DNA of 64,000 nucleotides, from the NCBI GenBank assembly GCA_964344285.1, contig CAYFMM010000003.1:67072-131071 (forward strand), read 5' to 3'. The notes beneath the pieces were generated by a model that did not search any database, was not told where the DNA came from, and saw nothing but the letters and a program-made list of their open reading frames with translations. The stretch is from an uncultured Methanosarcinales archaeon (GTDB taxonomy: Archaea > Nanobdellota > Nanobdellia > Woesearchaeales > GW2011-AR9). The position numbers were made by a program, and so were the translations under genes. How positions within the stretch are numbered: the stretch's first letter is position 1; each line of letters starts with the position of its first letter. Positions 3,099-51,086 of this stretch are shown one piece after another.

Positions 3099-3102
3099 TT
3101 TT

Positions 3103-28790: not shown

Positions 28791-29702
28791 GTGAGTAAAT
28801 TGGAGATTAACAAAATGAAAGATATAATTATTACAATACCAGCGTTTAATGAGCAAAAAACATTACCAGGTGTGATAAAAGCAATTATTGCAGTCATGCA
28901 AAAATCTACATATGCTAAACGATATCAAATTCTTGTAGTTGATGATGGCAGTGCAGATGATACAATACAAGTTGCAAAAAAAGCAGGAGCGATCGTTGTA
29001 GGAAAAAAACATCGAGGACTTGCACAAACTTTTCGTAGTGAGATGGAAGAATGTTTGAAAAGAAAAGCAAAGATTATTGTACATACAGATGCTGATGGTC
29101 AATATAACCCCGCTCATATCCCTGAGTTAATTGCAAAGGTAGAACAAGGATATGATTTAGTGCTTGGAAGTAGATTTTTAATCAACAGAAAACATAGGAT
29201 GCCACTACTAAAAAAATTAGGCAATATTGCATTTGCAAAAGTTATCGGTTCTTTACTTGGACAAAAGATCACAGATACTACCACCGGATTTAGAGGATTT
29301 AATGCTGCAATTGCAAGTGAAATTTCGTATATCAATACATTTACATATACACAAGAACAGATTATTAAGGCAGTTAAACAAGGGTTTAAGGTTACTGAGA
29401 TCCCAATTACAATTAAGAAAACACGAGAGAGTAGATTGTTTAATAGCCCGATCCAATATGCGTTACGGGCATGGATTAATATTTTACGAATTTATAGAGA
29501 TTATCAACCACTATCATTCTTTGGCAGAATTGGGATTGGGTTTTTCTCAGTTGGTTTTGTCATTGGGTTGTGGTTGTTGTATCGGTTTGTAACTTTAGGA
29601 TATGTTGGGCGGGTACCTTCACAGATTTTAAGTGTACTGCTAATGCTAGTTGGAATGCAAATTGTATTATTTGGGTTTCTTGCTGATATGAGCAAACAAT
29701 GA
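28791..29702 (+). CDS. GT2 polyprenyl-phosphate glycosyltransferase with C-terminal TM anchor (DPM1/GtrB-like)
   Basis: IITIPAFNEQKTL, VVDDGSADDT, and C-terminal TM helices (GIGFFSVGFVIGLWLLY). Confidence 0.65.
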   Translation: MSKLEINKMKDIIITIPAFNEQKTLPGVIKAIIAVMQKSTYAKRYQILVVDDGSADDTIQVAKKAGAIVVGKKHRGLAQTFRSEMEECLKRKAKIIVHTDADGQYNPAHIPELIAKVEQGYDLVLGSRFLINRKHRMPLLKKLGNIAFAKVIGSLLGQKITDTTTGFRGFNAAIASEISYINTFTYTQEQIIKAVKQGFKVTEIPITIKKTRESRLFNSPIQYALRAWINILRIYRDYQPLSFFGRIGIGFFSVGFVIGLWLLYRFVTLGYVGRVPSQILSVLLMLVGMQIVLFGFLADMSKQ

Positions 29703-29741: not shown

Positions 29742-32700
29742 ATGCACGAAAATAGTATGAATAAGGATGGGGTTTTGGGAGGAAAAAAGCTACGTATTGC
29801 GTATTGTGGAGTAGTTGGAGATTTGTTTCATTACGGTCATTTACAAAGTTTACTCTTTGCAAAGTCTATTTCTGACGTTAGTATTTGCGGAGTGTTTACA
29901 GATGAAGTTGTAGAGACATATAGAGAAAAACCAATTGCAAATTTTCAAGAGAGGTTACCTATTTTTCAGAATTTACGCTGTGTAGATAGAGTAATGATCC
30001 AAAATGAAAGAGACCCTACAGATAATTTGAAACGGATTCATGAGGAGTTCCCTGATGCAGAGATTATCTTAGTACATGGCGATGATTTAAGTTACGTGCA
30101 CGGCTCAGATTATGTAAAAGAGATTGGAGGAAGAGTTGCAAAGCACCCTTATTACCAACGCCTTTCAACATTTAAGATTATTAACACATTACTTGAGCGT
30201 AAAGATAAAATCAAAGATATAAAATCACTCTCTTCTTACATCACAGATAAAGAAGACCTTGATGAAGAAGCAAAGCGAGGAAACAAGTTTATTATTTCAT
30301 CAAAGGCCGATACGTTAAAGGCGCTAAAACCATTATTAAAGAAGAGTAAGGTTGAAGGGTTGTATAGTTTTTCTGTACAAGAATGGGAAAATAGACAAGC
30401 AGAGATCATACAAGCAATACAAACAACTTTTGGCAATACTTTACTTGTTGTAAGAAATTCAGTGATTAAAGAACATATTTCTGCTAAATTTGATGATAAT
30501 TCATTCCCTTATTTTACAAAAATAGACAGTGAGAATAAAGAAGAAATAATCTCAAGTGTACAGGAGATCATTAGTGCATATGAACAAAATCTTGAAGAGA
30601 CACGACAGCAACAAATTTTAATTCAACCATCAGTAGAAGTAATGATTAAAGGAAATGCATATCCTTCAACCTCTGGGAAATATCTTTTATTGAACTGTGA
30701 TTATTTTTCCCAAGGAAAAAGAGTTAGAAATGAAACATTTAGAATTAGTCCAAAAGATAAAGAGATCCCTACTCTTATTGGTAAGGCAAAAGAAGCCATT
30801 GAGGAAATTCAAAGCCTCATTCCCAATATGAAATTGGACGTTAATTTTGCTATCTCTAAAGAGGGAGAGGTGTACATTTTTGACGTTAACTTATTGTCTG
30901 ATCTATTTGTGCATGGCTGGGGAGGAACAACCTCAATCCAGTCATTAGAATGCCATACACTTCGTTATGTTGATTTTCCAAAGAGAATTGGCAATGCTAT
31001 TGACCGAAGAATTTTTTGTGAGATTCGTAAAAAACATCACACTGTATATTTTGACAAAAAGGATGTAGAAAGATGGAATAATGAAGGAATAATATTGCTA
31101 GAGGCAAGAGAAAGAGAAAGAATAATCAAAGATAATTTAGAACAAATTGAAAGATTTTTTTCATTTTATGTAGATCATAAAAATACAAACTTTGCTAAGA
31201 AAACGGACCAAGAATTGTCTGTAGTTTATAGTGAACTGTTAAATCTTGTGATGGAAAATGGTTCATTTTTCCCTTACTCTAGAGAGGAAACTGTAAAGCC
31301 CATTAAAGATAAAGTTATGGAATTATTAAAAGGAGTACACAATCCACAAAAAATATTACAAAAATTAACTACTCCAGTTGAAGAAGATTTATTCTTACGA
31401 GAGCAAAAAGAACGTTTGGTCGCATTTAAAGATGGAAGCAAAGAGGGATTGATGCATTATGCCACACTTCATCCTTGGCGTTTTATCAATACGTATTCAT
31501 CAGAAGCCATTTATGAATTTTTAAGGCAAGAGCAACAGGAGACAAATCTGCAAGATTTGCAGCAAGAGATTACACAAAAAGAAGAAGAAAATAGAGAACG
31601 TAGAATTGAACAAGAGAAATTGTTTAAGGAGATTGATAATCATGAGCTGCAAGAATTATGTATGTTTTTACAGAAGATTGCAGTTGTAAGATTAGAGAAT
31701 AAAAATATTTGGGCAGGGTATGAGTATTTATTCTTAGGATTATTTGAAGAGATAGCATCTAGATTAGAGTTAAGTATTGAAGACTTCTTATACACCTATA
31801 GGATTGAAGAGATTAAAGAGTTTTTAATTGAAGGAAGAAAGCTTTCTTTAGAAGATATTACAAGAAGATTAAAATATTTTAATTTAGAAATTTTTCCACA
31901 TAGAACTATTGTAGGATATAAATTAAAGTACGGAAAAGAGTTAGAACATCAACAGCAAAAAGAAGGAGTTTTAGTAGGGGAAGCAGGAAACTTAGGCAAA
32001 GTAGTAGGAAGGGCATTAGTGGTTACAGACGATAGCATTAGCTCTTTGATGAAACTAAAAAAAGAAATGACTTCTGAGGACATTTATATCACAACTATGA
32101 CTCATCCTGCCATGGTTTCCTTATTACATAAGGCAAAAGGAATTGTAACTGACGAAGGAGGGATCACTTCACACGCAGCCATTATCTCAAGAGAAATGGA
32201 TATCCCTTGTTTGGTAGGAACACGTGTAGCCACAAGATATTTTAAAACAGGAGACATTATCGAATTAGATTCTTATAATAAAAAAGTTAAGAAAGTTGAG
32301 GGAATTGATTTAGCTACCTATAATGCACAATTGTCTCCAAAGCAAGAGGAAGAAGAATGTGATATCTCCGTATTAGAGATTACAAAACCAAAAATTGACA
32401 AAAGTATTCCATACACCTTATCCTTTAGTGAGCTTTTGGGCAAGGGGAATCTTGTTGGAGGGAAGGGAGCAAACTTAGGGATTTGTTTTGCTAACCATAC
32501 TGTGCCCGATGGTTTTAGTATTACTCGAAGATTGTATGATGAAATATTAGGTCAGTTTTTGGGAGAAAGGGAATTCCTAAGGATTGATTTAGAGAGTGAT
32601 GCAAAATTATTAGAAACTGTTAGAGAATTTATCAAAGATTATAAGTTTCCAGAAGAGTTAGTACAAGAGGTTGAAACAAGATTATCTTCATTAAGAGGAA

Positions 32701-33302
32701 AACAATTTGCGGTACGAAGTTCTGCTTCATGTGAGGATTCTGCGCAAAATAGCTTTGCTGGTCAGTTCAGTAGTTATTTAGGAGTTAAAAAAGAAGGCGT
32801 AATTGATGCAGTAAAAGATTGTTTATGTTCTGCATTCATGGAAAATGTGTTTTCATATATTGCATTAAGCAAATTAAGTTTAGAACATTTTTTTATGAGC
32901 GTTGTTGTACAAAAATTTGTTGAGAGCGAAAAGTCAGGAGTTCTATTCTCGCAAAACCCAAGTGATCCATTGATTGAAGGGTTTTGGATTGATGCAAATT
33001 TTGGCGTAGGAGAATCAGTAGTTTCTGGAGAAGTTAAACCAGACCAATACTTTGTGCATGCAATGGGCGTTGATATGAAAATTTCAGATGAGAAGGAAGC
33101 TTATTCTTATGCTTCTGGAAATCTATCTTCAGAAAGAAAAGAGGGAAGAGTTCTAGAGGATTCTGAAATTCAAGAGTTAGTTGATTTAGGAAAGAGATTA
33201 AAAGATTATTATGACAAAGAGATAGAATGTGAATGGGCTTATTTTGAGAATAAGTTACATTTGCTACAAGTCAGACCGATTACGGTAATAAGAGAGGAGT
33301 AA
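29742..33302 (+). CDS. multidomain enzyme: TagD-like cytidylyltransferase + central domain of unknown function + PEP-utilizing phosphohistidine swivel domain + PPDK_N ATP-binding (ATP-grasp) domain
   Basis: N-terminal HxGH motif (CGVVGDLFHYGHLQS, glycerol-3-phosphate cytidylyltransferase-like). Phosphohistidine motif GGITSHAAIISREMDIPCLVG near residue 800. C-terminal PEP synthase/PPDK N-terminal nucleotide-binding domain (LVGGKGANLG...FAVRSSASCEDS). Domain order is permuted relative to PEP synthase. Confidence 0.6.
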   Translation: MHENSMNKDGVLGGKKLRIAYCGVVGDLFHYGHLQSLLFAKSISDVSICGVFTDEVVETYREKPIANFQERLPIFQNLRCVDRVMIQNERDPTDNLKRIHEEFPDAEIILVHGDDLSYVHGSDYVKEIGGRVAKHPYYQRLSTFKIINTLLERKDKIKDIKSLSSYITDKEDLDEEAKRGNKFIISSKADTLKALKPLLKKSKVEGLYSFSVQEWENRQAEIIQAIQTTFGNTLLVVRNSVIKEHISAKFDDNSFPYFTKIDSENKEEIISSVQEIISAYEQNLEETRQQQILIQPSVEVMIKGNAYPSTSGKYLLLNCDYFSQGKRVRNETFRISPKDKEIPTLIGKAKEAIEEIQSLIPNMKLDVNFAISKEGEVYIFDVNLLSDLFVHGWGGTTSIQSLECHTLRYVDFPKRIGNAIDRRIFCEIRKKHHTVYFDKKDVERWNNEGIILLEARERERIIKDNLEQIERFFSFYVDHKNTNFAKKTDQELSVVYSELLNLVMENGSFFPYSREETVKPIKDKVMELLKGVHNPQKILQKLTTPVEEDLFLREQKERLVAFKDGSKEGLMHYATLHPWRFINTYSSEAIYEFLRQEQQETNLQDLQQEITQKEEENRERRIEQEKLFKEIDNHELQELCMFLQKIAVVRLENKNIWAGYEYLFLGLFEEIASRLELSIEDFLYTYRIEEIKEFLIEGRKLSLEDITRRLKYFNLEIFPHRTIVGYKLKYGKELEHQQQKEGVLVGEAGNLGKVVGRALVVTDDSISSLMKLKKEMTSEDIYITTMTHPAMVSLLHKAKGIVTDEGGITSHAAIISREMDIPCLVGTRVATRYFKTGDIIELDSYNKKVKKVEGIDLATYNAQLSPKQEEEECDISVLEITKPKIDKSIPYTLSFSELLGKGNLVGGKGANLGICFANHTVPDGFSITRRLYDEILGQFLGEREFLRIDLESDAKLLETVREFIKDYKFPEELVQEVETRLSSLRGKQFAVRSSASCEDSAQNSFAGQFSSYLGVKKEGVIDAVKDCLCSAFMENVFSYIALSKLSLEHFFMSVVVQKFVESEKSGVLFSQNPSDPLIEGFWIDANFGVGESVVSGEVKPDQYFVHAMGVDMKISDEKEAYSYASGNLSSERKEGRVLEDSEIQELVDLGKRLKDYYDKEIECEWAYFENKLHLLQVRPITVIREE

Positions 33303-33328: not shown

Positions 33329-34081
33329 TTAAAGAAACCCTAATTCATTTAATTCTTTTTCCAGCTTGGCAACATAAGCTGCATTTGCTGTGCCGTCACG
33401 TAGAACTCGGTCATCAAAGTGGATTGCAGTCATGCCGTGGTGCTGTGCCCACTCACAATTACCTCTGCTATTATCAATGAATACACTTTGGCCTTTGGCA
33501 ACATCTGCTTTATCTGCAGCAACATCGTACTGTTTTGCATCTGCACCTTTTTTCAAGGTTCCAACATCTGCATCAGCAGAAATAACCATCGGATCGAATC
33601 TTTCTGATAGGCCATATTTAGCATCTACTGCTTGCATTCTATCTCCCGGATTATCAGTAATCATTCCAACAGCATAACCTGCATCCTTAACTCTTGTTGC
33701 AAGGTCTAACATTGGTTCATTCATTTTCGTAGCTTCAAAACCAGCTTGGACATCTTCGTATGTGATGCCTGGGTTAACACCGTATAGGGATTGCACTTTT
33801 GTATTGAAATCGTCCAACATTCCAGAGTGCATTATTTGTCCTTCCTCTAAGGGATGCATAAAACGTGCTTTTCCATCATCGTCAGCATACGTCCCTTGAT
33901 AGAATGTATCAAAGTTAACGCCTAGTTGTTCTTGTAGTCCTTTTTGTTCATATACATGCTTCCAAGTTGTGATGGAACCTTGTGTATCCATGGCAACAAC
34001 ACCATCAAAGTCCAAGAATAATGCTTTTGGATCTGACACGTTTGCTGGTTTGTAAATTGTTATATTTCCGTTACTGTTCAT
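33329..34081 (-). CDS. HAD superfamily hydrolase (phosphatase-like)
   Basis: Motif I LFLDFDGVVAMD. GC content is visibly higher than the surrounding genes. Confidence 0.5.
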   Translation of the reverse strand: MNSNGNITIYKPANVSDPKALFLDFDGVVAMDTQGSITTWKHVYEQKGLQEQLGVNFDTFYQGTYADDDGKARFMHPLEEGQIMHSGMLDDFNTKVQSLYGVNPGITYEDVQAGFEATKMNEPMLDLATRVKDAGYAVGMITDNPGDRMQAVDAKYGLSERFDPMVISADADVGTLKKGADAKQYDVAADKADVAKGQSVFIDNSRGNCEWAQHHGMTAIHFDDRVLRDGTANAAYVAKLEKELNELGFL

Positions 34082-34120
34082 AGTAAATTCTCTCCTTGAA
34101 TTGTTTTGTTTGGCATGGTA

Positions 34121-34136
34121 TTTTAAGGTATATAAA
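34121..34136 (+). promoter_or_regulatory. candidate archaeal TATA box (TTTTAAGGTATATAAA)
   Basis: A strong TATA-like octamer directly abuts the first in-frame ATG of the following ORF. This suggests the true start is the downstream Met at 34211. It lies in a divergent intergenic region. Confidence 0.3.
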
Positions 34137-34210
34137 TGTTATGGTCTAGTAATCACTTCCAAGGAGTTCCTAAAGAAAGTTTTTTAAAATATGTCTCTTT
34201 TGAGCGACGT

Positions 34211-35491
34211 ATGCCTATAGGCACAATCATGTATGTTAATGAACCTGGCGACCCTTTAAACAGAAGTAAACTATGGGGACTCACTCGTCAAGCAGATGTG
34301 CTATTCTTTGCGTTTTCCCATAGAGGTTTAGTAGATGTTTTTGAGGAAGGTTGGAACAATTTTGTGGAAAATCCCCATAAATTACAAGGACCTATGTTAG
34401 ATGAATTAGTACAAGGAGGGATCCCTAAAGACCAGCTATTCCTTGGACAAGTCGCACGAGTACAACATCAAGATATAGGGGAAAAAACAAAAGTTGTGTT
34501 AGAACGAGTTACTTCTGAATTTCCCAGACAAGAAATGGCAGAATTGTTAGAAAATTCTCGAAGACCTTTCATTGAAGGTGAAATTGAAAAAGGCGTTCAA
34601 AATTTTGGAAGATATTGTAGTTTACTCGGCTCACAAATAGTAGCACGTAATAGAGCAATGGCTACACAGATACAAGCGCAAGAAGGGCGAGTTCTTACTG
34701 TTGTAAGCGACTCTATGAGCACAGTTTGGGAGAATATAAGAGAGGTAGAATTACATAGAAACCTGCCCAAACAACCAGCATCTCCTTGGCAAAGAGTGGT
34801 TCCATTTTATGAAGGTAAAGAGGATGATGTTGAACTGCGAGATGTATTCTTACGAATTATGGGTGCAGATACGATTTATAGTCTTGCTGAGAAAATAGAG
34901 CCTATAGCACGAGTTGCAGTTGCATCTCACTACGCAAATATTTTGTCTCAAGACCAAATCATTGGACTTAGAGATTACACAGATACTTGTCTTAGAACCC
35001 ATGCAGCAAATCCAGTTATTGCATTAATTGCTCCTGAACCAAAAGGGCAAGAGATTCTTGATTCTTATCTTGCAAGTCAAGGAGTAACATCTGTTTATGA
35101 TACACAGGAGGAGCAAGGACTGAACGATATGGATATGGATAGAAGTGAAAAAGCAAGGATAGTTATGGATGAGATGACGTCCATAGCAAAATATGTCCAA
35201 TCTGAAGGATATGATGCAGAGAGAACATTTGCACTTATAAAAATTCATGAACTTCGTCGAGGTTTTGAATTTGGAGGTGATCCGTTCGATATGGATATGT
35301 CTCTTACAATGATGCGACATAATGCAGGATATCGTCAATCAATGCGAGAGATTAGTCTGCTTGATGGTGGAATTGGATATAATATGTTAGAAAGACTTGC
35401 AACAGACACAGGATTTAGAAATGAGATGATGAGTACCTATAAAAGCCAAGTTCTCCCTGAACTGCAACGACAAAGAGCAAGTCTTTCGTAG
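34211..35491 (+). CDS. hypothetical protein (no recognisable motif), in the higher-GC block
   Basis: Long ORF with Lys-poor, Asp/Glu/Arg-rich composition unlike the rest of the window. Start set at the internal Met MPIGTIMYV. Confidence 0.5.
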   Translation: MPIGTIMYVNEPGDPLNRSKLWGLTRQADVLFFAFSHRGLVDVFEEGWNNFVENPHKLQGPMLDELVQGGIPKDQLFLGQVARVQHQDIGEKTKVVLERVTSEFPRQEMAELLENSRRPFIEGEIEKGVQNFGRYCSLLGSQIVARNRAMATQIQAQEGRVLTVVSDSMSTVWENIREVELHRNLPKQPASPWQRVVPFYEGKEDDVELRDVFLRIMGADTIYSLAEKIEPIARVAVASHYANILSQDQIIGLRDYTDTCLRTHAANPVIALIAPEPKGQEILDSYLASQGVTSVYDTQEEQGLNDMDMDRSEKARIVMDEMTSIAKYVQSEGYDAERTFALIKIHELRRGFEFGGDPFDMDMSLTMMRHNAGYRQSMREISLLDGGIGYNMLERLATDTGFRNEMMSTYKSQVLPELQRQRASLS

Positions 35492-35578
35492 TAAAGGTCA
35501 ATTTCGAAGAGTCTTTCACAACACTTATAAAACAAATTTTCTGTCGAGAGCATAAAACAAAGCGAGGTTTACCATACA

Positions 35579-36382
35579 ATGAAAGTAATTATTTTAGCAG
35601 CAGGAAGAGGTTCTAGATTAAGCAAGTACACAGAGGTTTTACCAAAAGGCATGTTGCCATTAGCAGGCAAGCCGTTGCTTCAAAGACAGATTGAAACATT
35701 ACGCAAAACAGGGATTACTGACATTTCAGTTGTGCGAGGATATAATAAAGACAAAATTAGTTTTGATGATGTGAAATATTATGAGAGTCCACAATGGGCA
35801 AGTACTGGACCAGTTGTATCATTATTTTGTGCAGAAAAAGAATTTGATGGATCAGATGATATTTTAGTGTCATACGCAGATTCAATTCAAGAACCACGAA
35901 TTTTAAAACAAATTATGGAAGAACGATTCCCATTAAGTAAGGCAATTGACACTGATTACAAAGATTATTGGACAGCACGAAATGGATCATGGAAAGAAGA
36001 TTCTGAGTCATGTACTCTTCGAGAGAATGGGTCTATTGTCGAGATAGGAGAAGATGGTGTAACAGACGAAGCAAGGCTACATGGAAGAGACGCAAGTTTA
36101 ACTTTTATCTCCAAAGAAATGGCTCCAAAAGTGCTTGAATTATACAAAAAAATGGCACAAGAACATTGGGACACTCCAATCGTTGATGGAAAAGGCGTAA
36201 GTCAGTTTAATATGACAAATTTATTACAGTCTTGGATTGATAATGGGTGGACTGTGATGGCTAATAAAATTCAACGTGGTTGGATGGAATTTGATACAAA
36301 CGCAGATTATGAAAATGCATTAGCATGGCATAAATCTGGTAAAATCAAAGAATTTATTGATTTAGACTTAACACAAGAATAA
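35579..36382 (+). CDS. nucleotidyltransferase (LicC-like CTP:phospho-alcohol / sugar-phosphate cytidylyltransferase family)
   Basis: N-terminus MKVIILAAGRGSRLSKYTEVLPKGMLPLAGKPLL matches the NTP_transferase signature (GxGxRL...PK). Confidence 0.6.
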   Translation: MKVIILAAGRGSRLSKYTEVLPKGMLPLAGKPLLQRQIETLRKTGITDISVVRGYNKDKISFDDVKYYESPQWASTGPVVSLFCAEKEFDGSDDILVSYADSIQEPRILKQIMEERFPLSKAIDTDYKDYWTARNGSWKEDSESCTLRENGSIVEIGEDGVTDEARLHGRDASLTFISKEMAPKVLELYKKMAQEHWDTPIVDGKGVSQFNMTNLLQSWIDNGWTVMANKIQRGWMEFDTNADYENALAWHKSGKIKEFIDLDLTQE

Positions 36383-36467
36383 AATTTTATTTTTTTGCTT
36401 TTCTTAATTTTTATCTTAATATGATGATACATAAGTTTAATAAAGTGAATAGAGTTATTTTCTTTTT

Positions 36468-37205
36468 ATGAAAGTTGGATTTACATGTAGACAAACTATA
36501 ATGGAAGGTCGTGGAAACATGACCGAAGTAGAAGGAGAATATATGCAATATTATCCCCGTTTTGGTATTTACCTTGTACTTCTTACACCAGAGATGTTAG
36601 ATATTGAAGGCAATCCTGATTTTTTAGAAAAACAGATTAAAGAATTAGGAATTGAAGGGTTTATCATTGGAGGAGGAAATGGAGTTGATCCAAAGCTATG
36701 GGGAGAAGAAAAAGAATACGAAAATAGATGGTCGGATCCTCGACAAAGATTAAATGAATGGGTATTAGACTACGCAACAAAAAACAAAATGCCGGTATTA
36801 GGAGTTTGTACAGGACTACATGCAATGAATGTTTTTTATGAAGGAAAATTAGTGCAAAACATTCCTGGACAGACAGAGAGCACAATAATTCATTCTCCTG
36901 GTAATGGAAACCCACATACGCCGCACGAAATTACGTTGTCAGGGAAGGCTGTAGAATATTTTGGGTCTGATGTAGTACAAGTCAATTCATATCATAGCCA
37001 AGGAATTGTAGGAGATATGGTAGGTAAAGGGTTGCAACCCTGGGCAAGTTGTGCGGACGACACTGTAGAAGCTGTATACCATACAGAATTACCTATGGCA
37101 GGAATTACCTGGCACCCAGAGCGTGATTATGCGTCTCCAGACAAAGTATTTAATGAGAAATTAGTAAAAGCCTTTGTGAACAGAGAATTATTTTGGAAGA
37201 AGTAA
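36468..37205 (+). CDS. class I glutamine amidotransferase-like / peptidase C26 (gamma-glutamyl hydrolase, PuuD-like)
   Basis: Nucleophile elbow LGVCTGLH and a C-terminal His region (GITWHPE). Confidence 0.55.
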   Translation: MKVGFTCRQTIMEGRGNMTEVEGEYMQYYPRFGIYLVLLTPEMLDIEGNPDFLEKQIKELGIEGFIIGGGNGVDPKLWGEEKEYENRWSDPRQRLNEWVLDYATKNKMPVLGVCTGLHAMNVFYEGKLVQNIPGQTESTIIHSPGNGNPHTPHEITLSGKAVEYFGSDVVQVNSYHSQGIVGDMVGKGLQPWASCADDTVEAVYHTELPMAGITWHPERDYASPDKVFNEKLVKAFVNRELFWKK

Positions 37206-37288
37206 AGGAACACTTAATCGTTTTATTAATTTATAATTTTTTATTTTTGATTTGCGTATTATAAGAAAAGAGTAAAAAAGAAAATAAA

Positions 37289-38251
37289 TTATTCTGCAAT
37301 CTGCACGTATTTTCCAAGTGCTTGAGTATTTTGAACTTGGTAGTTATCAGGCAAACCTGATCTATTACCTTCTCCTACCAAAGAAGCATCCGTTCTTCGC
37401 CATTTAAATTCAGGAGCAAAAAGACCAGATCCTTTATCTACTTCAAATACCATCTCTAAAGTCCCTGCTTGTGGCATTGGATTTCCATCATACAAATCTA
37501 CCGCATTGTTCCCTACTCCTGAACCATCAACTACTCTTGCAATAGCATCAATGTTAAAGTCATGAGTGGCACCCCGTGCTACTCTTGTTGGCCCACGGGA
37601 AACTTCCCCTAGAAAATGATTTAATGCTCGGTCTGCAAGATCTTGAGGGTGTTCTTCTACCCGAGGATCATTTCTATCAAATGCTACGTCAGCTTGATAT
37701 GCAAATGTTCTTATCAAACCATGCTTTGCATATTCTGCTTTTACATCAGGCTGTCCTGATTCTACAAAGAGTTGATGTCCTGAAGGATCATCAACAAGAG
37801 TTCCTTCTTGGTTGTAAGCTTTGAAATTTGCCTCCCTAAGAGGTTTTCCTGATTCCCAATCAAAGCGATTAAATTCTGCTGAAGTCTGAGGTTTTAGGTT
37901 TCCTAATATGTGTACTTTTCTAAACTGATCAGGTTCAAGGCCAAGTCTCCCATAAAGTTGGAATAACATACCTGTTCCAGAGTAATGTGTTGTCTGTTCT
38001 GCTCTTTTAACATCGGAAGGCCCTAAATAGATTTTATCTCCCTCATTTAATTCTGGGATATATGCTTCAAATCCACGTGCCTCAGCATTTTCCATTCCTT
38101 CTCTTGAGATTGGTGCTTCTCTTCCAAAACTCTCTCCTGCTCCAGACCAACCCGCCTTTTCATCTCTTGTTTGCGCTTGTTGACCTGGTGTTGTAAAATC
38201 TCTTGGTTCATGTCGTTCAAACGCGACGACAACTTCTTCAAAATTTGTCAT
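37289..38251 (-). CDS. hypothetical protein, in the higher-GC block
   Basis: About 320 aa ORF with Gly/Asp/Ala/Arg-rich, Lys-poor composition. No recognisable motif. Start set at the internal Met MTNFEEV. Confidence 0.45.
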   Translation of the reverse strand: MTNFEEVVVAFERHEPRDFTTPGQQAQTRDEKAGWSGAGESFGREAPISREGMENAEARGFEAYIPELNEGDKIYLGPSDVKRAEQTTHYSGTGMLFQLYGRLGLEPDQFRKVHILGNLKPQTSAEFNRFDWESGKPLREANFKAYNQEGTLVDDPSGHQLFVESGQPDVKAEYAKHGLIRTFAYQADVAFDRNDPRVEEHPQDLADRALNHFLGEVSRGPTRVARGATHDFNIDAIARVVDGSGVGNNAVDLYDGNPMPQAGTLEMVFEVDKGSGLFAPEFKWRRTDASLVGEGNRSGLPDNYQVQNTQALGKYVQIAE

Positions 38252-38456
38252 AATAATCAATCCTCCATTGAGTATATGGAGAAAGCACAAAATTGTCGAA
38301 CAAAATGTTGTGCTTTCTAATCTAGCTCAGGCAACAAGAATGTTTGAACATTTATTGCCTTCACTATACTAAGAAACAAGAATTTTTACTTTATAAAAGT
38401 AATGGCAAGGAATTAATCCACAATACTTATATACACTAAACCAAGAAACAAGCATA

Positions 38457-39278
38457 ATGAATCCATTCAAAATCATACGTACATATGGGATTAAAAGTAT
38501 TATTCAAAATATTTTCTCGTTAATGATTAGTGATGTTCATGTAGTGTCATTTGAGAAATGTGGCAGGACATGGCTTCGAGTGATGATTGCAAAGTTAATT
38601 GCAAAAAAACTAAAGAAAAAGAGATTAAATTTAGATACACAATTTATGACGTTAGGAAAAGCATTTCCAAATATTGTATTTTCACATGCAGGAGGAAATC
38701 AACTAAATAACAAGATTAATTTTAAGAAACTTTTCAAGAATAAAAAAATTATTTTTTTGGTACGTGATCCTAGAGATTTGATTGTGTCATTATATCACGA
38801 GTATACAAAGCGAAGAAAAATTTATGCAGGAAGTATTGCAGATTTTATACACGACAAGAAATATGGCATACACGCTCCAATTAAGTTTATGAATTATTGG
38901 GCAAAGGAAATGGAAAAAAGACCCCAAGATTTTTTATTAATTAGATTTGAAGATTTAAAAGATAATACGCAAAAAGAATTGCAACGGATTGTTGATTTTT
39001 TAGGTGTTAAAATCAACCAAGATATAATCCAAAAAGCAGTTGATTTTGGTTCTATGGAAAATATGCGCAGATTAGAACAAAGTAATGTTCTTAAAGATGC
39101 AAGACTAGCTCCTGTAGATAAAAAAGATCCTAATTCATACAAAGTTCGCAAAGGTAAAAAAGGAGGTTTTAAAGAGGAATTATCCTCCAAAGATATTGCT
39201 TTTGTAGAGGATTATATTAGAGATCATCTTACATTAAATCTAGAGTATTCAAAGAAATCCGACACCTCCGCAGACTAG
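38457..39278 (+). CDS. sulfotransferase family protein (PAPS-dependent)
   Basis: 5-prime PSB-like motif FEKCGRTWL and 3-prime PB motif FLVRDPRDLIVSLYH. Confidence 0.65.
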   Translation: MNPFKIIRTYGIKSIIQNIFSLMISDVHVVSFEKCGRTWLRVMIAKLIAKKLKKKRLNLDTQFMTLGKAFPNIVFSHAGGNQLNNKINFKKLFKNKKIIFLVRDPRDLIVSLYHEYTKRRKIYAGSIADFIHDKKYGIHAPIKFMNYWAKEMEKRPQDFLLIRFEDLKDNTQKELQRIVDFLGVKINQDIIQKAVDFGSMENMRRLEQSNVLKDARLAPVDKKDPNSYKVRKGKKGGFKEELSSKDIAFVEDYIRDHLTLNLEYSKKSDTSAD

Positions 39279-39415: not shown

Positions 39416-40210
39416 ATGAATTATTCTCGTGAGTTAGAACTTGCAAAGCAAGCTGCTGTAGAGGCTGGAAAGAGAGTTATGGAATATTATGATTCCAATA
39501 ATGCTAGTGTATATTCTAAAGAAGATAAAAGTCCTTGCACGGCAGCAGACCTTGCAGCAAATGAAATTATTGTTAAAAAAATTAAAGAAGAATTTTCAGA
39601 AGATGGAATTTTAACCGAGGAAGCAAAAGACGACTTAACTCGATTACAAAGAAGTAGAGTCTGGGTTATTGATCCATTAGATGGAACAAAAGAATTTATT
39701 TCACATAATGGAGAATTTACAGTAAATATTGCATTGGTTGAGAACAATGAACCTGTAATTGGCGTTATCTATGTTCCTGCACTAAAAGAATTATTTTATG
39801 GTTCTAAGGAGGGGAGTTTTGTAGAAAAAGACGGAGTTGTGCAAAAATTACAAGTTTCAACACGTTCAAATTTGAATGAAATGATCTTGGTAAAAAGTAG
39901 ATCTCATAGTTCTGCAAAAGAGGCACAATTAGAAACTCAATTTGCAGAGACTAAAGTGAGTGGAAGTTCTCTAAAAGGGTGTCGCATTGCTCAAGGTAGA
40001 GCTGATGTGTATTATAGATTTGGCCCAACTCATGAATGGGATATTTGCGCTATGAGTTGTATTCTTGCGTTTGCAGGAGGAGTTATGACTACTTTAGAAG
40101 GGAAATCTTTAAGATTCAACCAAGAGCAGACACTAATACAAGGTTTTGTAACATCAAACAATACAATTCATGAAAAGTTAGTAAATCTTAGCGAGGTACA
40201 AAATGGATAG
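39416..40210 (+). CDS. cysQ: 3-prime(2-prime),5-prime-bisphosphate nucleotidase (CysQ / inositol monophosphatase family)
   Basis: IMPase motifs WVIDPLDGTKEF and the later WDICA. Confidence 0.7.
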   Translation: MNYSRELELAKQAAVEAGKRVMEYYDSNNASVYSKEDKSPCTAADLAANEIIVKKIKEEFSEDGILTEEAKDDLTRLQRSRVWVIDPLDGTKEFISHNGEFTVNIALVENNEPVIGVIYVPALKELFYGSKEGSFVEKDGVVQKLQVSTRSNLNEMILVKSRSHSSAKEAQLETQFAETKVSGSSLKGCRIAQGRADVYYRFGPTHEWDICAMSCILAFAGGVMTTLEGKSLRFNQEQTLIQGFVTSNNTIHEKLVNLSEVQNG

Positions 40211-41006
40211 ATTAGATATGTTAGAAGCTCAGGCGATTTATGTTTTGCGAGAAGCATACAAGAAATTTGGAAAGTTAGGCATGTTATGGTCTATGGGAAA
40301 AGATTCAACTGTAATGTTATGGCTTGCAAAAAAAGCATTTTTAGGACATGTGCCTTTTCCGTGCATCCATATTGATACAACTTTCAAGTTTCCAGCAATG
40401 TACGAATATCGAAGTAAGATAGCAAAAGAATGGAATCTTAACTTGCTAATTGGAAAGAATGAAGAAGCACTCGCAAATGGTGTAAATTATGATAATTATC
40501 CTGCTCTTAAGGTTTGTGAAGAACTAAAAACAAATGCATTAAAGCAATTTGTTGAAAAGAATAAGTTTGAAGGTTTAATTTTAGCAATTAGATCAGATGA
40601 AGAGGGTTCACGTTCTAAAGAAAGGTTTTTTAGTAAAAGGAACGCTGATTTTGAATGGGATTATACTGACCAACCTCCTGAATTGTGGGATCAATTTAAT
40701 ACAGATTATAATAAAGAAGAACATATTAGAGTACATCCTATTTTGCATTGGACAGAACTTGATGTGTGGGAATATGTTAAACGGGAGAAAATTCCTTTAA
40801 TTGATTTATACTATGCAAAAGATGGGAAGAGATATAGAAGCTTAGGGTGTATGCCAATTACTCATCCAATCGATTCAAATGCACAAACTGTTGATGAAAT
40901 TATCGAAGAATTAAAACAAACAAAGGTCTCAGAAAGAGAGGGTAGAGGTCAAGATAAAGAAGATAAGTATGCACTACAAAAGTTAAGAGCAAAGGGGTAT
41001 ATGTAA
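40203..41006 (+). CDS. cysD: sulfate adenylyltransferase subunit 2
   Basis: PAPS-reductase-fold motif LWSMGKDSTVMLWLAKKAF. 8-nt overlap with the cysQ-like gene. Confidence 0.85.
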   Translation: MDRLDMLEAQAIYVLREAYKKFGKLGMLWSMGKDSTVMLWLAKKAFLGHVPFPCIHIDTTFKFPAMYEYRSKIAKEWNLNLLIGKNEEALANGVNYDNYPALKVCEELKTNALKQFVEKNKFEGLILAIRSDEEGSRSKERFFSKRNADFEWDYTDQPPELWDQFNTDYNKEEHIRVHPILHWTELDVWEYVKREKIPLIDLYYAKDGKRYRSLGCMPITHPIDSNAQTVDEIIEELKQTKVSEREGRGQDKEDKYALQKLRAKGYM

Positions 41007-41007
41007 A

Positions 41008-41214
41008 ATGGTTACAGAAAAAAAGAAACGAAGTATTGCAAAGGCGCTGAGTTGGAGAGTTACAGCAACATTAATTACAACAGTTCTTGTTTTTATATTT
41101 ACAGGTCAGTTTACATTAGCAATCTCAGTGGGGGTTGTTGAAGTCTTATTGAAAATGCTAGCGTATTATGCGCATGAACGTTCATGGGACAAAATTAACT
41201 GGGGGAGATTTTAA
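41008..41214 (+). CDS. small two-helix membrane protein (DUF2061-like) inside the cys operon
   Basis: 68 aa with two hydrophobic helices, tightly packed between cysD and cysN with overlapping stop and start. Confidence 0.4.
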
Positions 41215-43085
41215 TGGATAAGGCACTCAAATTTGTTGTAGTAGGTCACGTAGATCATGGAAAATCAACATTAATTGGTAGACTATTAGCAGATACAAAC
41301 TCAGTCATGGATGGTGTTTTAACAAAAGTAAAAAATACATGTCAGGAGAAAGGCATTGAATTTGAGTATGCATTTTTGCTAGATGCATTTCAAGAAGAAC
41401 AAGAACAAGGGATTACAATTGATACTACAAAGATTGAATTTTCAACAGATAAAAGAGATTACACTATTATTGATGCTCCAGGACATAAGGAATTTCTAAA
41501 AAACATGGTTAGCGGTGCTTCTAGTGCAGAAGCTGCATTATTAATTATTGATGCTAAAGAAGGTGTAAGAGAGCAATCAAAAAAACATGCATATATTTTG
41601 TCCTTAATTGGGGTAAAACAAATTTATGTGATTATTAATAAAATTGACTTAGTTCAATATTCTCAAGAACGCTTTAACGAAGTGAAATTTGAGATGGATG
41701 CATATTTACGCAAGCTTGGAATAGAAGCTCAAAAATTCATCCCTATTTCTGCTAAGTTAGGAGATAATGTTGCGATGAGTTCCTCTAATCTTGCATGGTA
41801 TCAAGGAGAAACTGTTTTAGCTGCAATTGATAATTTTACAAAGAGTGAAGAGATGCATGACAAACCATTACGAGTTCCTGTGCAGGATGTGTATAAATTT
41901 GATGCACGTAGAATTATTGCAGGAAGAGTAGAAAGCGGTTCAATTAAAATTGGAGATAAAATCACGTTATATCCCTCATTAAATACTACAACAGTTAAGT
42001 CTATTGAAGAATGGAAAGTTCAGACTGAGAGTAATCAAAAGAAAGCTGGAGATTGTGTAGGGTTAACGTTTAATGATGAATTCTTTTTGCAAAGAGGCGA
42101 GGTTATTGCAAGAGCTGATGAAAAACCAAGAGTACGCAATTTATTGCATTGTAATTTTTTCTGGATGGGTAAAGAAGATCTTGCCATTGGTAAAAAGTAT
42201 AAATTAAAGCTTAATACACAAGAAGTAGAATGCGAGATCCACACAATTAATAGTGTTGTTGACTCCAATACTCTTGAAAAAATTCCCGGTAAGCATTCGT
42301 TATCTAAGAATGATGTAGGAAATTTAGTTATTAAAACAAAACAACCAGTTGTATTTGATGCATTTTCTGAGATTCCAACTACAGGAAGATTTGTGCTCGT
42401 AGATAATAATATTGTGTGTGGCGGAGGTATCATTGAGAATACAAGTAATGAATTGCAACAACGTGAAGTTGTAGAAACTAAAAGTGAATTAGTATCTCCA
42501 AAACAAGGTATGGTGTCTAATCTTGAGAGAGAAAAACGCCAAGGCCACCGAGGAAAAGTAGTGTGGATTACAGGACTTTTAGGAAGCGGAAAGGAAAAAA
42601 TTGCCCAATATGTTGAGCGAGAGTTGTTTGATAAAAGGATGGGCGTGTATTACCTTGATGCAGGAAATATTCGTTTTGGGTTGAGTTCCAACCTAGATTA
42701 TAGTGAGGAATCTCGTAAAGAGCATGTGCGAAGGATTGCTGAAACTGCAAACTTATTTGTGCAAGCAGGATTAATAGTTGTAGTTTCTGTTGTAAGCCCA
42801 TATAAAGAACATCGGGCCCTTGCAAGACAACTTATTGGAGAGAATAATTTCATGGAAGTATTTGTTGATGCTCCAATAGAAGTATGTAAGCAAAATAACC
42901 CACATGGCATTTATTCTTCTGCAGATCAAGGAAAGATCTCAAGTGTTCCTGGAGTCAATTTCCCTTATGAAAGATCAGATTATTTGATTTATACATTAGG
43001 GATTAACTCTAGTGAGGATAATTTGCAAGAAAAAGCAAAACAATTAGTAGATTTAGTTTGTAAAGATGTTACCAAACAAGATTAA
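41214..43085 (+). CDS. cysN: sulfate adenylyltransferase subunit 1 (GTPase) fused to a C-terminal APS-kinase-like domain
   Basis: EF-Tu-like GTPase motifs [12 protein letters not shown] and DAPGH. The C-terminal ~180 aa are APS kinase-like, but the P-loop reads GLLGSGKE (no Ser/Thr after GK). Confidence 0.85.
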
Positions 43086-43671
43086 TGCAACAAACATAAC
43101 GTGGCACAAAGAGGCTGTTACAAGAGAAGATCGCAGGACACTTCTTGGAGTTAAAAACAAGGTAGTGTGGTTTACTGGACTTTCAGGTTCAGGAAAATCC
43201 ACGTTAGCAAGAGAAGTTGAAAAAGGTTTACATCAGCAAGGTGTCTTGTGTTATGTGTTGGATGGCGATAATATTAGACATGGATTAAATCAAGATTTAG
43301 GTTTTTCTAAAGAAGAACGAGATGAAAACATTAGAAGAATTGCAGAAGTGAGCAAATTACTATACGAAGCTGGTGTTGTTGTATTAGTAAGTTTTATTAG
43401 CCCTTATAGAAAAATGCGTGATTTTGCAAGAAACTTAATTGGAGAAGATTTTGTTGAAGTGTTTGTTGATTGCCCTATTGAAGAATGTCAAAAAAGAGAT
43501 GTTAAAGGATTATATCAAAAAGCGTTGGCAGGGGAGATTACAGGATTTACAGGAGTTGATGATCCATATGAAAAACCAGAGAATGCCCAGATTACAGTTG
43601 AGACTTCTAAACTTTCTATTTCCAAGGCAAAGGACAAAATAGTTAGTTATCTGCTTTCTTTAAACGCATAA
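43066..43671 (+). CDS. cysC: adenylylsulfate (APS) kinase
   Basis: Canonical P-loop [16 protein letters not shown] and downstream APS kinase motifs. Confidence 0.85.
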
Positions 43672-44350
43672 ATTGAGAGATTAATTTTCTACAGAGTTCT
43701 AAGAAGAAAAAGAGTGCATAAATGAGAAGCGTGTAGTGTGCATATCCAAATAGTACTCCCCAAAACATAAAGTTAAAGATATATTCTAGGCGTAAGAATG
43801 CAAAGATGTTGTAAAGAAAATTTTTTTGATTTACAAGTAAGGAACCTTGCAGACAATGAGCTACTTTTTCTTGTTGTTCTTGTGAACCATACCACTGAGG
43901 GTTTAAGGTGAGTGCTTTATTGAGCAAGAAACTAAAAACAGCTATTGCACCAGCAAGTAAGTAGAGTGGATTTTGCTGGATTTTATATACACCAATAGTC
44001 AAGCTTACAAGTAGCGTAGGGTTTGCAATGTAATGACCGATATAATCAAGATAAATTCCGTTTAAAGAAAATATTTTTTTGTATCTTGCAACAATACCGT
44101 CTGTACAATCAATGATAAAGAATGCTTGGAAGAAAAATAGGCCTAAAACCATTTTGTGCCACTGCCCCGTTGCTAGGAATAGAGCAGAGACAATTTGGCC
44201 AAGAATCCAAATTACTGTTATTTGATTTGGCGTAAGCCTTGTCTTTACAAGAAGCTTAGCAGGATAAAACCCAAGATGATCTACCAAGCGGTAGAAGATG
44301 TCTCTTCGGTTACTTGAGGCAACTTGTTTAAGCTCTTTAATTGTAGGCAT
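43643..44350 (-). CDS. CDP-alcohol phosphatidyltransferase family membrane protein
   Basis: Motif DCTDGIVARYK...G.YLDYIGH within a polytopic membrane protein. Confidence 0.55.
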   Translation of the reverse strand: MPTIKELKQVASSNRRDIFYRLVDHLGFYPAKLLVKTRLTPNQITVIWILGQIVSALFLATGQWHKMVLGLFFFQAFFIIDCTDGIVARYKKIFSLNGIYLDYIGHYIANPTLLVSLTIGVYKIQQNPLYLLAGAIAVFSFLLNKALTLNPQWYGSQEQQEKVAHCLQGSLLVNQKNFLYNIFAFLRLEYIFNFMFWGVLFGYAHYTLLIYALFFFLELCRKLISQFMRLKKADN

Positions 44351-46358: not shown

Positions 46359-46880
46359 TTGAGAGTAAGTAATATGCGAAAAGAAGAACAACATTTACGT
46401 AAAATTAATCTTGGTTGCGGCACTGATTATAGAGAAGGGTTTATCAATGTAGAAAATAGCCCATTTGTCAAAAAAGACGTTGAATGTGACTTAAATAAAT
46501 ATCCTTATCCTTTTGATGATGAGAGTATTGATGAAGTACATGCATATGCAGTAATGGAAAATTTAGACGATATAGTCAAGTTTATGGATGAAGTTTATCG
46601 GATATTAAAGCCAGGAGGGATGTTAAAGTTTAGATCTGCTTTAGCATTTACATATGTTGATGCAAAAGATCCCACTCACAAACAGCATTTTATCCCCGGA
46701 ACGTTTAATTTATGGCTCAAGGGATTTAATGATCAAAAGATTAGTAAAACTCAATTTAAAGGAAAGTTATGGGTAACAATTCCTTTCTTTCATAAACTAC
46801 GTTTTCCAGCAAGCCTACATATTTTAAATTCTTTTGTTAACAACATTTTTACGGGGATCGAAGGAGAATTTATCAAATAA
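46359..46880 (+). CDS. class I SAM-dependent methyltransferase
   Basis: Motif I INLGCGTDY and motif post-I LKPGGMLKF. Confidence 0.6.
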   Translation: MRVSNMRKEEQHLRKINLGCGTDYREGFINVENSPFVKKDVECDLNKYPYPFDDESIDEVHAYAVMENLDDIVKFMDEVYRILKPGGMLKFRSALAFTYVDAKDPTHKQHFIPGTFNLWLKGFNDQKISKTQFKGKLWVTIPFFHKLRFPASLHILNSFVNNIFTGIEGEFIK

Positions 46881-50971: not shown

Positions 50972-51086
50972 AGGTGGACAGCTAACCAAGTTTCCCGCGT
51001 AATGCAGTACACCAAGGAACGGAAGCGCGCTTAACTTCTGTGTTCGAAAAGGGAACAGGTGAACCACGCCCCTATGGCCGTCCAAT
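50972..51086 (-). rRNA. rrf: 5S ribosomal RNA (boundaries approximate)
   Basis: The minus strand reads TGGACGGCCATAGGGGCGTGGTTCACCTGTTCCCTTTTCGAACACAGAAGTTAAGCGCGC...GCTGTCCACC. This carries the universal 5S loop C and helix III motif (CCGAACAC.GAAGTTAAGC). The 5-prime GGACGGC pairs with the 3-prime GCTGTCC as helix I. It is a GC-rich island in AT-rich surroundings. Confidence 0.75.

Follow-up and report, generated by a model that had tools for sequence, protein, structure and literature searches.

The 64,000-nucleotide stretch analysed here, referred to throughout as the window (contig CAYFMM010000003.1 of GenBank assembly GCA_964344285.1, positions 67,072 to 131,071), contains at 33329-38290 a block of five open reading frames (ORFs), including those of a LicC-like nucleotidyltransferase and a Peptidase C26 hydrolase. 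We conclude that this block was not recently inserted. We further propose, with moderate confidence, that it forms the central part of a surface-decoration cluster passed on by vertical descent in a DPANN (Woesearchaeota-like) archaeon, and that this cluster follows a phosphoramidate-donor-like model, in which a large phosphoenolpyruvate (PEP)-utilising kinase encoded just upstream, the nucleotidyltransferase and the hydrolase would together build a cytidine diphosphate (CDP)-activated group for placement on a glycan or lipid. All steps of the proposed pathway are derived from homology and gene order, and its likeness to the Campylobacter pathway is drawn through family models and gene adjacency.

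An earlier note on this DNA had inferred that the block is a horizontally acquired cassette, which may make a CDP-activated phospho-alcohol for glycan decoration. The broader functional part of that reading, a nucleotide-activated phospho-group donor for the decoration of surface glycans or lipids, agrees with the LicC-like nucleotidyltransferase and with the glycan island that surrounds it, and is kept here. A product of the phosphocholine or phosphoethanolamine type is not, given that no choline/ethanolamine kinase or LicD occurs among the block proteins and that such a product would leave the C26 and PEP-kinase partners unexplained. The constancy of these two partners points to the phosphoramidate route of Cj1416-Cj1418. 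In Campylobacter jejuni, the joint action of Cj1415-Cj1418 turns glutamine, ATP and CTP into CDP-phosphoramidate 3'-phosphate, which serves as donor when the capsule is modified with O-methyl phosphoramidate (MeOPN) (PMC11800397); Cj1418 is an L-glutamine kinase, Cj1416 a phosphoglutamine cytidylyltransferase, Cj1417 a gamma-glutamyl-CDP-amidate hydrolase and Cj1415 a cytidine diphosphoramidate kinase (PMC11800397; PMC6429109).

A conserved kinase, nucleotidyltransferase and hydrolase

The five ORFs of the block were all found as the earlier note had listed them, apart from the start of the 320-residue protein, and its three family calls (LicC-type nucleotidyltransferase, haloacid dehalogenase (HAD) hydrolase and C26-like hydrolase) all have clear Pfam matches. 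Together with the flanking genes that belong to the cluster they are:

28815-29702, + strand: family 2 glycosyltransferase (GT2; Pfam Glycos_transf_2), the conserved left neighbour of the cluster
29742-33302, + strand: multidomain PEP-utilising kinase of 1186 amino acids (Pfam CTP_transf_like, PEP-utilizers and PPDK_N), upstream of the block
33329-34081, - strand: HAD-IA-type phosphatase of 250 amino acids with the DxD motif FLDFDGVV
34136-35491, + strand: orphan ORF of 451 amino acids, between the HAD and nucleotidyltransferase genes in this genome only
35579-36382, + strand: LicC-like nucleotidyltransferase of 267 amino acids (Pfam NTP_transf_3, E=5.8e-17)
36468-37205, + strand: Peptidase C26 protein of 245 amino acids, a gamma-glutamyl hydrolase of the class-I glutamine-amidotransferase fold (Pfam Peptidase_C26, E=1.7e-30, 106.8 bits)
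37289-38251, - strand: conserved protein of 320 amino acids (no Pfam or NCBIfam match for the window protein)
43643-44350, - strand: membrane protein of the CDP-alcohol phosphatidyltransferase family (Pfam CDP-OH_P_transf, E=2.2e-7), the conserved right end of archaeal clusters

The profile of the nucleotidyltransferase family finds LicC (1jyk, E=2.5e-15) as its best match in the PDB, and the motif GWMEFDTN-DYE is invariant in the family. Identity to the window protein is 70-85% within the Woesearchaeota clade and 38-46% in other loci from DPANN archaea and bacteria of the Candidate Phyla Radiation (CPR), with the C26 gene always alongside; in the window, too, this NTP_transf_3, LicC-like gene stands beside the kinase and hydrolase genes. 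The C26 protein of the window scores highest with the NCBIfam model NF045546 for gamma-glutamyl-CDP-amidate hydrolase (53.7 bits versus 38.4 bits for PuuD), and the same model is the best for every relative tested (76-112 bits, cut-off 250). Its residues Cys114, His216 and Glu218 are invariant, and homologues come from four small contigs (66-71% identity) and from the genome of a groundwater Nanoarchaeota member (37%). The two window proteins are 43% (nucleotidyltransferase) and 37% (C26) identical to homologues encoded beside bona fide PRK05849 kinases, a family that we take to contain Cj1418. As for the four Campylobacter enzymes, we assume them to be a PEP-utilising kinase, a LicC-like nucleotidyltransferase, a C26 hydrolase and an APS-kinase homologue (APS, adenosine 5'-phosphosulfate); the PDB sequence set that we searched contains none of the MeOPN enzymes of Campylobacter. 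Judged by position and family, the window nucleotidyltransferase would be the counterpart of the phosphoglutamine cytidylyltransferase Cj1416, and the C26 protein the predicted counterpart of Cj1417.

About 55 related loci, numbered here with the prefix L, were gathered from the contexts of C26 homologues, by tblastn and by two collection scans with nucleotidyltransferase alignments; a contig-collection scan with the 1186-residue kinase gave no matches. Neighbours were counted in 36 non-redundant loci, those in which the nucleotidyltransferase shares 38% or more of its residues with that of the window. The C26 gene lies within 5 kb of the nucleotidyltransferase gene in 36/36 of them and within 1 kb in 35/36, and the kinase gene lies within 3.3 kb in 30/36, with a truncated kinase at the contig edge in 2 more. 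The trio of kinase, nucleotidyltransferase and C26 genes is adjacent in about 32 of the 36, spread over DPANN archaea, CPR bacteria and proteobacterial plasmids. An APS-kinase-like gene occurs within about 5 kb in 17 of the 36 loci, and a CysQ-like gene is often present. The CDP-alcohol phosphotransferase is a conserved neighbour only in archaeal loci, with identities to the window protein of 54-58% in L003, L005, L010, L039 and L043 and of 25-30% in L007 and L015.

The usual archaeal order is GT2, large PEP-utilising kinase, HAD (where present), nucleotidyltransferase, C26, homologue of the 320-residue protein and CDP-alcohol phosphotransferase. Four of the five block genes, with the flanking genes, are conserved in place and orientation in related Woesearchaeota/Nanoarchaeia contigs (L003, L005, L039 and L040). 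Thus, L005 reads GT2, a 1208-residue kinase, nucleotidyltransferase and C26, followed on the opposite strand by a 329-residue gene and the CDP-alcohol phosphotransferase, its first three pathway genes overlapping; L039 reads nucleotidyltransferase and C26, then on the opposite strand a 294-residue homologue and the phosphotransferase; and in both L003 and L040 an oppositely oriented HAD gene, about 110 bp from the nucleotidyltransferase gene, is followed by nucleotidyltransferase and C26. The GT2 of the window is 64-66% identical to the genes in the same position in L005 and L010. In L005, the closest syntenic contig, a reverse transcriptase gene (RVT_1, 310-1398) lies just upstream of the GT2 gene. 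A further member of the clade, L004, sits on a contig with a GC content of 43%, and its nucleotidyltransferase and C26 genes have a GC content at third codon positions (GC3) of 0.55-0.59; this contig is without a kinase gene, carries a pyruvate-kinase/ATP-sulfurylase fusion and an Exo_endo_phos gene, and encodes at 1-4416, adjoining the nucleotidyltransferase/C26 pair, a protein of 1472 amino acids with many Asn-x-Ser/Thr sites that is probably a surface protein.

The kinase encoded upstream of the block combines a HIGH-type cytidylyltransferase domain (residues ~20-150), which resembles ethanolamine-phosphate and choline-phosphate cytidylyltransferases (3elb, E=2.7e-10), with a PRK05849-like ATP-grasp domain (177-383), an unrecognised centre (~384-795), a phospho-histidine swivel domain (778-852) and a second complete ATP-grasp domain of the PPDK_N type (903-1185). 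Orthologues at 50-55% identity lie directly upstream of the nucleotidyltransferase gene in L005, L010 and L011, share this architecture throughout, and keep the central domain conserved. The canonical kinases of more distant relatives have about 790 amino acids, or about 950 with a fused cytidylyltransferase, and are full members of PRK05849 (891 bits in L025 and 872 bits in L007, cut-off 501). In the Vibrio locus L059 (6455-9355; 966 amino acids) the N-terminal piece of the kinase is NTP_transf-like (E=6e-6), in contrast to the HIGH-type domain of the DPANN kinases; the fusion of a nucleotidyltransferase to the kinase has arisen twice independently.

This Vibrio trio belongs to plasmid pYa108 of Vibrio alfacsensis, and the trio also occurs on plasmid AZO_p6 of Azospirillum lipoferum (L060), so that cultured Proteobacteria carry it under labels from the Prokaryotic Genome Annotation Pipeline that are generic. 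Its neighbours on the two plasmids include cysDN, an APS-kinase fusion, an S-adenosylmethionine (SAM) methyltransferase, sulfotransferase-domain proteins and a histidine phosphatase family protein. In Azospirillum the trio is accompanied by the APS-kinase fusion, the SAM methyltransferase, two sulfotransferase-domain proteins and the histidine phosphatase, and no ATP sulfurylase is annotated in the 16 kb around it, the plasmid gene tables being incomplete; in this context the sulfotransferase-fold proteins might transfer the group from a donor that resembles 3'-phosphoadenosine 5'-phosphosulfate (PAPS). A neighbour-joining tree of the nucleotidyltransferases, without bootstrap support, nests CPR bacterial sequences among archaeal ones and puts the window clade on a long separate branch. 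Because of this nesting we conclude that, at a deeper level, the trio moves between domains.

Taken together, these observations suggest the following scheme. The 1186-residue enzyme would use ATP to phosphorylate a small acceptor by way of its phospho-histidine swivel domain, after which the LicC-like nucleotidyltransferase, the cytidylyltransferase fused to the kinase, or both would join cytidine monophosphate from CTP to the product, giving a CDP-linked gamma-glutamyl compound. The C26 hydrolase, acting through Cys114, His216 and Glu218, would then strip off glutamate and leave a CDP-activated phosphoramidate. This donor could be 3'-phosphorylated in the fashion of Cj1415 by one of two APS-kinase domains encoded nearby or, alternatively, be used directly by the membrane protein of the CDP-alcohol phosphotransferase family, and in either case the group would end on a glycan or lipid. 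Two accessories of the sub-clade, namely the HAD phosphatase and the 320-residue protein, probably dephosphorylate an intermediate or by-product.

Base composition and the inheritance of the block

The sliding GC and tetranucleotide analysis bears out the earlier description of the block as GC-rich: with 37.8% GC, where the remainder of the window has 33.9%, it exceeds every other 5-kb segment (about 3.4 standard deviations above the mean), and no other segment of that length deviates as much in tetranucleotide content (z=4.3). The excess sits wholly in the first and second codon positions (GC12; Mann-Whitney p=0.002), and the block proteins are low in FYMINK residues (p=0.003) and high in GARP residues (p=0.009), whereas neither GC3 (p=0.38) nor synonymous codon usage (p=0.42) sets the block apart from the other 51 ORFs. 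The excess is therefore an amino-acid signal and not foreign codon usage. Nor is it uniform: the nucleotidyltransferase departs little from background (GC12 z=+0.6, Lys 8.2%), and the 320-residue ORF is the only clear GC12 outlier of the block (z=+3.0). Housekeeping genes elsewhere in the window, for example those for methionine aminopeptidase (MetAP) and the thermosome, have a GC12 comparable to that of the block, and the kinase gene is at background composition. What had been seen as GC-rich, Lys- and Ile-poor DNA is thus correctly described and is no codon anomaly; we trace the raised GC to the composition of the protein families themselves, in which Gly, Ala, Arg, Asp and Glu are abundant and Lys and Ile scarce. 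For annotation in general, a GC bump limited to codon positions 1 and 2 is no evidence of recent transfer.

Recent import is unsupported because the orthologues share the bias and because the synonymous sites are saturated. In L003 and L005, too, the orthologues are low in Lys and Ile and high in GC at first and second positions, with ordinary GC3. When the window is compared with L003 or L005, identity at conserved four-fold degenerate sites comes to 0.15-0.43 for every gene, the chance expectation being 0.30-0.32. The nucleotidyltransferase is saturated at these sites too, despite 82-84% protein identity to L003 and L005, on which ground a recent transfer of this highly conserved gene among the relatives is rejected. 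In place of a horizontally acquired cassette we thus find uniform synonymous codon use and saturated four-fold sites, together with four genes (HAD, nucleotidyltransferase, C26 and the 320-residue protein) at conserved positions in relatives, only the 451-residue ORF being absent there.

The borders of the block show no tRNA and no integrase; of the direct repeats that the earlier note had proposed looking for there are no convincing ones, only short matches at chance level. Pfam scans of 28 window ORFs gave no recombinase. The block is flanked by one perfect inverted pair of 15 nt, GATTATTATGACAAA (33204-33218 on the + strand and 38244-38258 on the - strand). This word occurs nowhere else in the window, where 0.04 copies would be expected, and both arms are coding, one at the end of the kinase gene and the other over the start codon of the 320-residue gene. 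The pair is probably due to chance, with a rough estimate of about 0.1 for any such pair in 6 kb. Border repeats and inverted pair were accordingly rejected as evidence of mobility, the former being at chance level and the latter lying inside coding sequence.

Accessory proteins and genomic setting

The HAD protein exceeds the Pfam cut-offs for Hydrolase (31.0 bits, cut-off 26.4) and HAD_2 (24.6 bits, cut-off 23.8) and is TIGR02247-like (43 bits). Homologues stand between kinase and nucleotidyltransferase in the same orientation in L003 (47%) and L040 (44%), and a 27% homologue is located downstream in L011; the gene is an accessory of the sub-clade to which the window belongs.

The 320-residue protein starts, according to the alignment with its homologues, at the ATG at 38251 and not at the TTG at 38290. 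Genes for homologues of 325 and 329 amino acids occupy the syntenic position in L003, L005 and L006 (33%, E~1e-41), as does the 294-residue gene in L039, and more distant homologues lie beside the trio in L051, L015 and L017. Of the two proteins that the earlier note had suspected of being pathway enzymes, this one is therefore a conserved cluster member and the 451-residue protein a true orphan. A word-indexed search with the 320-residue protein returned only itself, and its homologues were found by tblastn and by searches with hidden Markov models (HMMs) in the syntenic loci, an illustration that word-indexed searches can miss real homologues that synteny recovers; a metagenome scan with a three-sequence alignment of the family gave no matches. 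The family has at least six members, and in six of them R13, H14, S79, R83, A84, T87 and H230 are invariant, in the pattern RH...SPLxRAxxT...SHxPN, which we take for the signature of the active site in histidine phosphatases of branch 1. Four independent matches agree on the histidine phosphatase family and on this motif, each of them sub-threshold: Pfam His_Phos_1 (E=0.0087, one member only), the SixA-like structure 3f2i (E=1.4), hhalign against GpmA/GpmB/SixA (E=0.0024, 12% probability, with what we presume to be the sequences of these proteins) and the Azospirillum histidine phosphatase (E=0.053). With moderate confidence, we place the protein in the histidine phosphatase superfamily as a probable divergent member.

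The 451-residue ORF has only itself as a match among 5.8 billion clusters and in a full HMMER scan of 1.84 billion representative proteins; it matches no Pfam or NCBIfam model and is absent from all of the approximately 55 related loci. PHROGs and PADLOC returned nothing for this protein or for the 320-residue one, and single-sequence AlphaFold2 models of the two were unusable (predicted local distance difference test scores of 34 and 30, respectively). Comparisons with the central domain "missing" from the kinase and with the membrane-anchored u422 family described below gave no signal. The frame is intact, with codon use typical of the genome (GC3 0.237) and the orientation of the downstream pathway genes; we estimate the chance of an open frame of 451 codons at this composition at about 4e-14. 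It is not an assembly artefact, because two runs of one sequencing project (ERR2281800 and ERR2281801) both yielded assemblies with an identical copy. We conclude that it is a genuine lineage-specific orphan inserted into the operon.

To the right of the block follows a set of sulfate-activation genes, and beyond the cluster lie further genes for glycan synthesis and RNA:

38457-39278, + strand: sulfotransferase-domain protein (Pfam Sulfotransfer_1, E=4.3e-24), right neighbour of the block
39416-40210, + strand: CysQ (NCBIfam, 216 bits)
40203-41006, + strand: CysD (NCBIfam, 356 bits)
between CysD and the CysN-APS kinase fusion, + strand: DUF2061 gene
41214-43085, + strand: CysN-APS kinase fusion (CysN 360 bits; APS-kinase domain PRK03846, 173 bits)
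43066-43671, + strand: stand-alone APS kinase (CysC) of 201 amino acids (PRK03846, 262 bits)
~3000-50000: surface-glycan island, with several GT2 glycosyltransferases, a DegT aminotransferase and a UDP-GlcNAc 2-epimerase-like gene
~3000-50000, further genes of the island: acyl-AMP ligase with phosphopantetheinyl transferase, LPG_synthase_TM and DUF354
13685-15055, + strand: u422-family homologue with N-terminal membrane helix and GDS(F) motif
46374-46880: small methyltransferase, within the island
46925-47860: second sulfotransferase, within the island
50973-51085, - strand: lone 5S rRNA gene, distant from the block
58461-58536, - strand: tRNA-His gene, the only tRNA of the window, distant from the block

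Homologues of the first sulfotransferase occur in the related clusters L039, L043 and L010. The two APS-kinase domains lie in tandem 5-7 kb downstream, in genes that overlap by 20 nt; their redundancy might be explained if another nucleotide were the substrate of one of them. In the window the PAPS genes separate the 320-residue gene from the CDP-alcohol phosphotransferase gene; they are absent in L005, where the homologues of these two genes abut. The block as a whole is enclosed by the surface-glycan island. Of its other members, the ORF at 13685-15055 is matched at E=5e-152 by an HMM built from 10 proteins of u422, a family of 420-430 amino acids that directly adjoins the trio in L007, L012, L014, L015, L020, L022, L027 and L052; the homologue lies 18 kb from the trio in the window and adjoins it in many DPANN and CPR loci. 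The Pfam matches of u422 are marginal (Lipase_GDSL_2, E=0.15), and it is a candidate transferase or esterase.

That the host is an archaeon is indicated by the thermosome (735 bits) and the type II MetAP; the closest named relatives of the window genes are metagenome-assembled Woesearchaeota/Nanoarchaeia genomes. The window sequence recurs in the ENA and Logan assemblies of ERR2281800 and ERR2281801.

Alternative readings and known systems

Several observations weigh against the phosphoramidate-donor-like model. The window kinase scores 133.9 bits with PRK05849 against a cut-off of 501, and an HMM made from 16 PRK05849-type kinases covers only its residues 177-383 and 796-852. Its central domain of about 410 residues, which would be expected to bind the substrate, has no match in the PDB and no hhalign match to PRK05849-type kinases, and because it is unrelated to these enzymes glutamine as the acceptor is not supported by homology. 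The proposed scheme gives no reason for a second nucleotidyltransferase domain or a second ATP-grasp domain. The C26 protein, at 53.7 bits, stays below the NF045546 cut-off of 250, and the assignment of the 320-residue protein to the histidine phosphatases would lean on sub-threshold matches. Finally, no PRK05541-type kinase was found in the window's cluster. The short kinases of relatives, adjacent in CPR and other loci, match PRK05541 best (154-155 bits, cut-off 127), which we presume to be the family of Cj1415, and both APS-kinase domains of the window score best as genuine CysC (PRK03846) beside CysD and CysN. The window APS kinases may thus serve sulfation only, since their CysC looks genuine and CysD, CysN and sulfotransferases are present.

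Part of this evidence is what would be expected if the same architecture served another chemistry, the kinase phosphorylating a different acceptor, so that a different CDP-linked, gamma-glutamyl-masked head group was made and placed on an archaeal lipid or a polyprenol-linked glycan by the CDP-alcohol phosphotransferase, with the phosphatases trimming the product. The unrecognisable kinase centre, the long separate branch of the window-clade nucleotidyltransferase in the tree that lacks bootstrap support, the restriction of the conserved phosphotransferase to archaeal loci, and the replacement, so to speak, of a PRK05541-type kinase by added HAD and histidine-phosphatase-like genes would all fit. 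However, nucleotidyltransferase and C26 remain clearly homologous to the partners of bona fide PRK05849 kinases, the best model for C26 is still that of the CDP-amidate hydrolase, and the kept gamma-glutamyl hydrolase argues for a retained glutamine or glutamate chemistry, so that we consider this alternative unlikely. A phospho-alcohol donor made by a recently acquired 5-kb cassette could draw on LicC as the best solved relative of the nucleotidyltransferase, on the likeness of the HIGH-type domain to ethanolamine- and choline-phosphate cytidylyltransferases, on the highest GC and most deviant tetranucleotides of the window and on the flanking inverted pair. It is made very improbable by the background GC3 and synonymous codon use, the synteny of four of the five genes and their flanking genes, the saturated synonymous sites, the plain borders, the lack of a choline/ethanolamine kinase or LicD among the block proteins, and the constant C26 partner that it does not account for.

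An ancient transfer, compatible with the functional model, is a milder form of import, in which the nucleotidyltransferase, C26, HAD and 320-residue genes came from an organism of higher GC and were ameliorated at synonymous sites only. The raised GC12 without raised GC3, the GC-rich L004 contig with its high-GC3 nucleotidyltransferase and C26 genes, and the CPR sequences among the archaeal nucleotidyltransferases are consistent with it. Against it, protein constraint alone can account for the bias, since housekeeping genes of the window are equally high in GC12; in addition, the kinase gene of the same module is at background composition and no donor lineage has been identified. We regard such a transfer as rather unlikely. 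A separate doubt concerns the 451-residue ORF, which may be no functional pathway enzyme at all and instead either an insertion that is decaying or selfish or a gene of very recent, lineage-specific origin. No search turned up a homologue, and the ORF splits an otherwise tight operon, as judged from the overlapping genes of L005 and from the HAD gene abutting the nucleotidyltransferase gene in L003 and L040; against this stand the intact frame with the codon usage of the genome, the shared orientation, and the identical copies in two runs. We would call this possibility somewhat doubtful, though tenable.

Under the phosphoramidate-donor-like model, the window and some 50 related loci suggest that a gene set for donor synthesis is spread widely among uncultivated DPANN archaea and CPR bacteria, groups believed to rely on contact between their cell surface and a host, and the window clade contributes to it an unusual multidomain kinase and new accessory proteins. 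The presence of the set on plasmids of culturable Vibrio and Azospirillum makes the prediction directly testable there. As recently as 2019, phosphoramidate (P-N) modification of surface sugars was reviewed as identified only in Campylobacter (PMC6429109), and in the literature searched its prediction in an archaeal setting appears in one preprint only, on Borg elements, in which a PRK05849-type cluster is predicted (bioRxiv 10.1101/2024.11.05.622173). More speculatively, and in our judgement quite improbably as a whole, woesearchaeotal DPANN archaea might carry a distinct, so far undescribed P-N donor pathway, with an enzyme that unites three parts (a cytidylyltransferase, a kinase whose substrate domain is novel, and a second ATP-grasp domain), a new branch of histidine phosphatases, and delivery by a membrane enzyme of the CDP-alcohol phosphotransferase family, or by one of sulfotransferase fold acting on the PAPS-like donor, rather than by Campylobacter-type transferases. 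If this were so, phosphoramidate-decorated, sulfated surface glycans or lipids would be common in ultra-small archaea and CPR bacteria, and the 451-residue orphan would be a newly arisen component.

Among known systems, the lic pathway of Streptococcus pneumoniae resembles the cluster in that no solved structure is closer to the nucleotidyltransferase than LicC (1jyk) and in that a CDP-activated phospho-group decorates a glycan, but C26 and PEP-utilising kinase partners have no role there, and no LicA-type choline/ethanolamine kinase or LicD transferase family of Pfam was found among the 5 block and 23 flanking proteins scanned. PuuD, the gamma-glutamyl-GABA hydrolase, has the fold and triad of the C26 protein (6vtv, E=1.8e-7; with the family profile, E=6.6e-22); in contrast to it, the window context is without polyamine genes and NF045546 outscores the PuuD model for every member tested. 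PAPS and sulfotransferase systems are represented by a complete CysDN, CysC and CysQ set immediately downstream, and this linkage recurs in L003, L004, L010, L039, L043, Vibrio and Azospirillum. The Campylobacter donor, a 3'-phospho-CDP-amidate, is a structural analogue of PAPS; the PAPS genes of the window score as genuine sulfate-activation enzymes, and a role for them in phosphoramidate transfer is speculation.

The cluster appears most like the MeOPN donor pathway of Campylobacter, at a level short of demonstrated equivalog membership. It differs from that pathway in its archaeal host, in the fused HIGH-type cytidylyltransferase, unrelated centre and second ATP-grasp of its 1186-residue kinase, in scores that all lie under the NCBIfam equivalog cut-offs, in being without a PRK05541-type kinase, and in the added HAD, histidine-phosphatase-like, CDP-alcohol phosphotransferase and orphan genes. 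It resembles it in the adjacency of a phospho-histidine PEP-utilising kinase, a LicC-like nucleotidyltransferase and a C26 protein with a Cys-His-Glu triad, with APS-kinase homologues nearby and in a surface-polysaccharide locus. From the trios of DPANN archaea, CPR bacteria, Proteobacteria and Borg elements the window clade is set apart by the replaced central domain and the added C-terminal PPDK_N domain of its kinase, while it shares with them homologous nucleotidyltransferases (38-46%) and C26 proteins (28-37%) in the same adjacency, frequently with CysQ- and APS-kinase-like neighbours.

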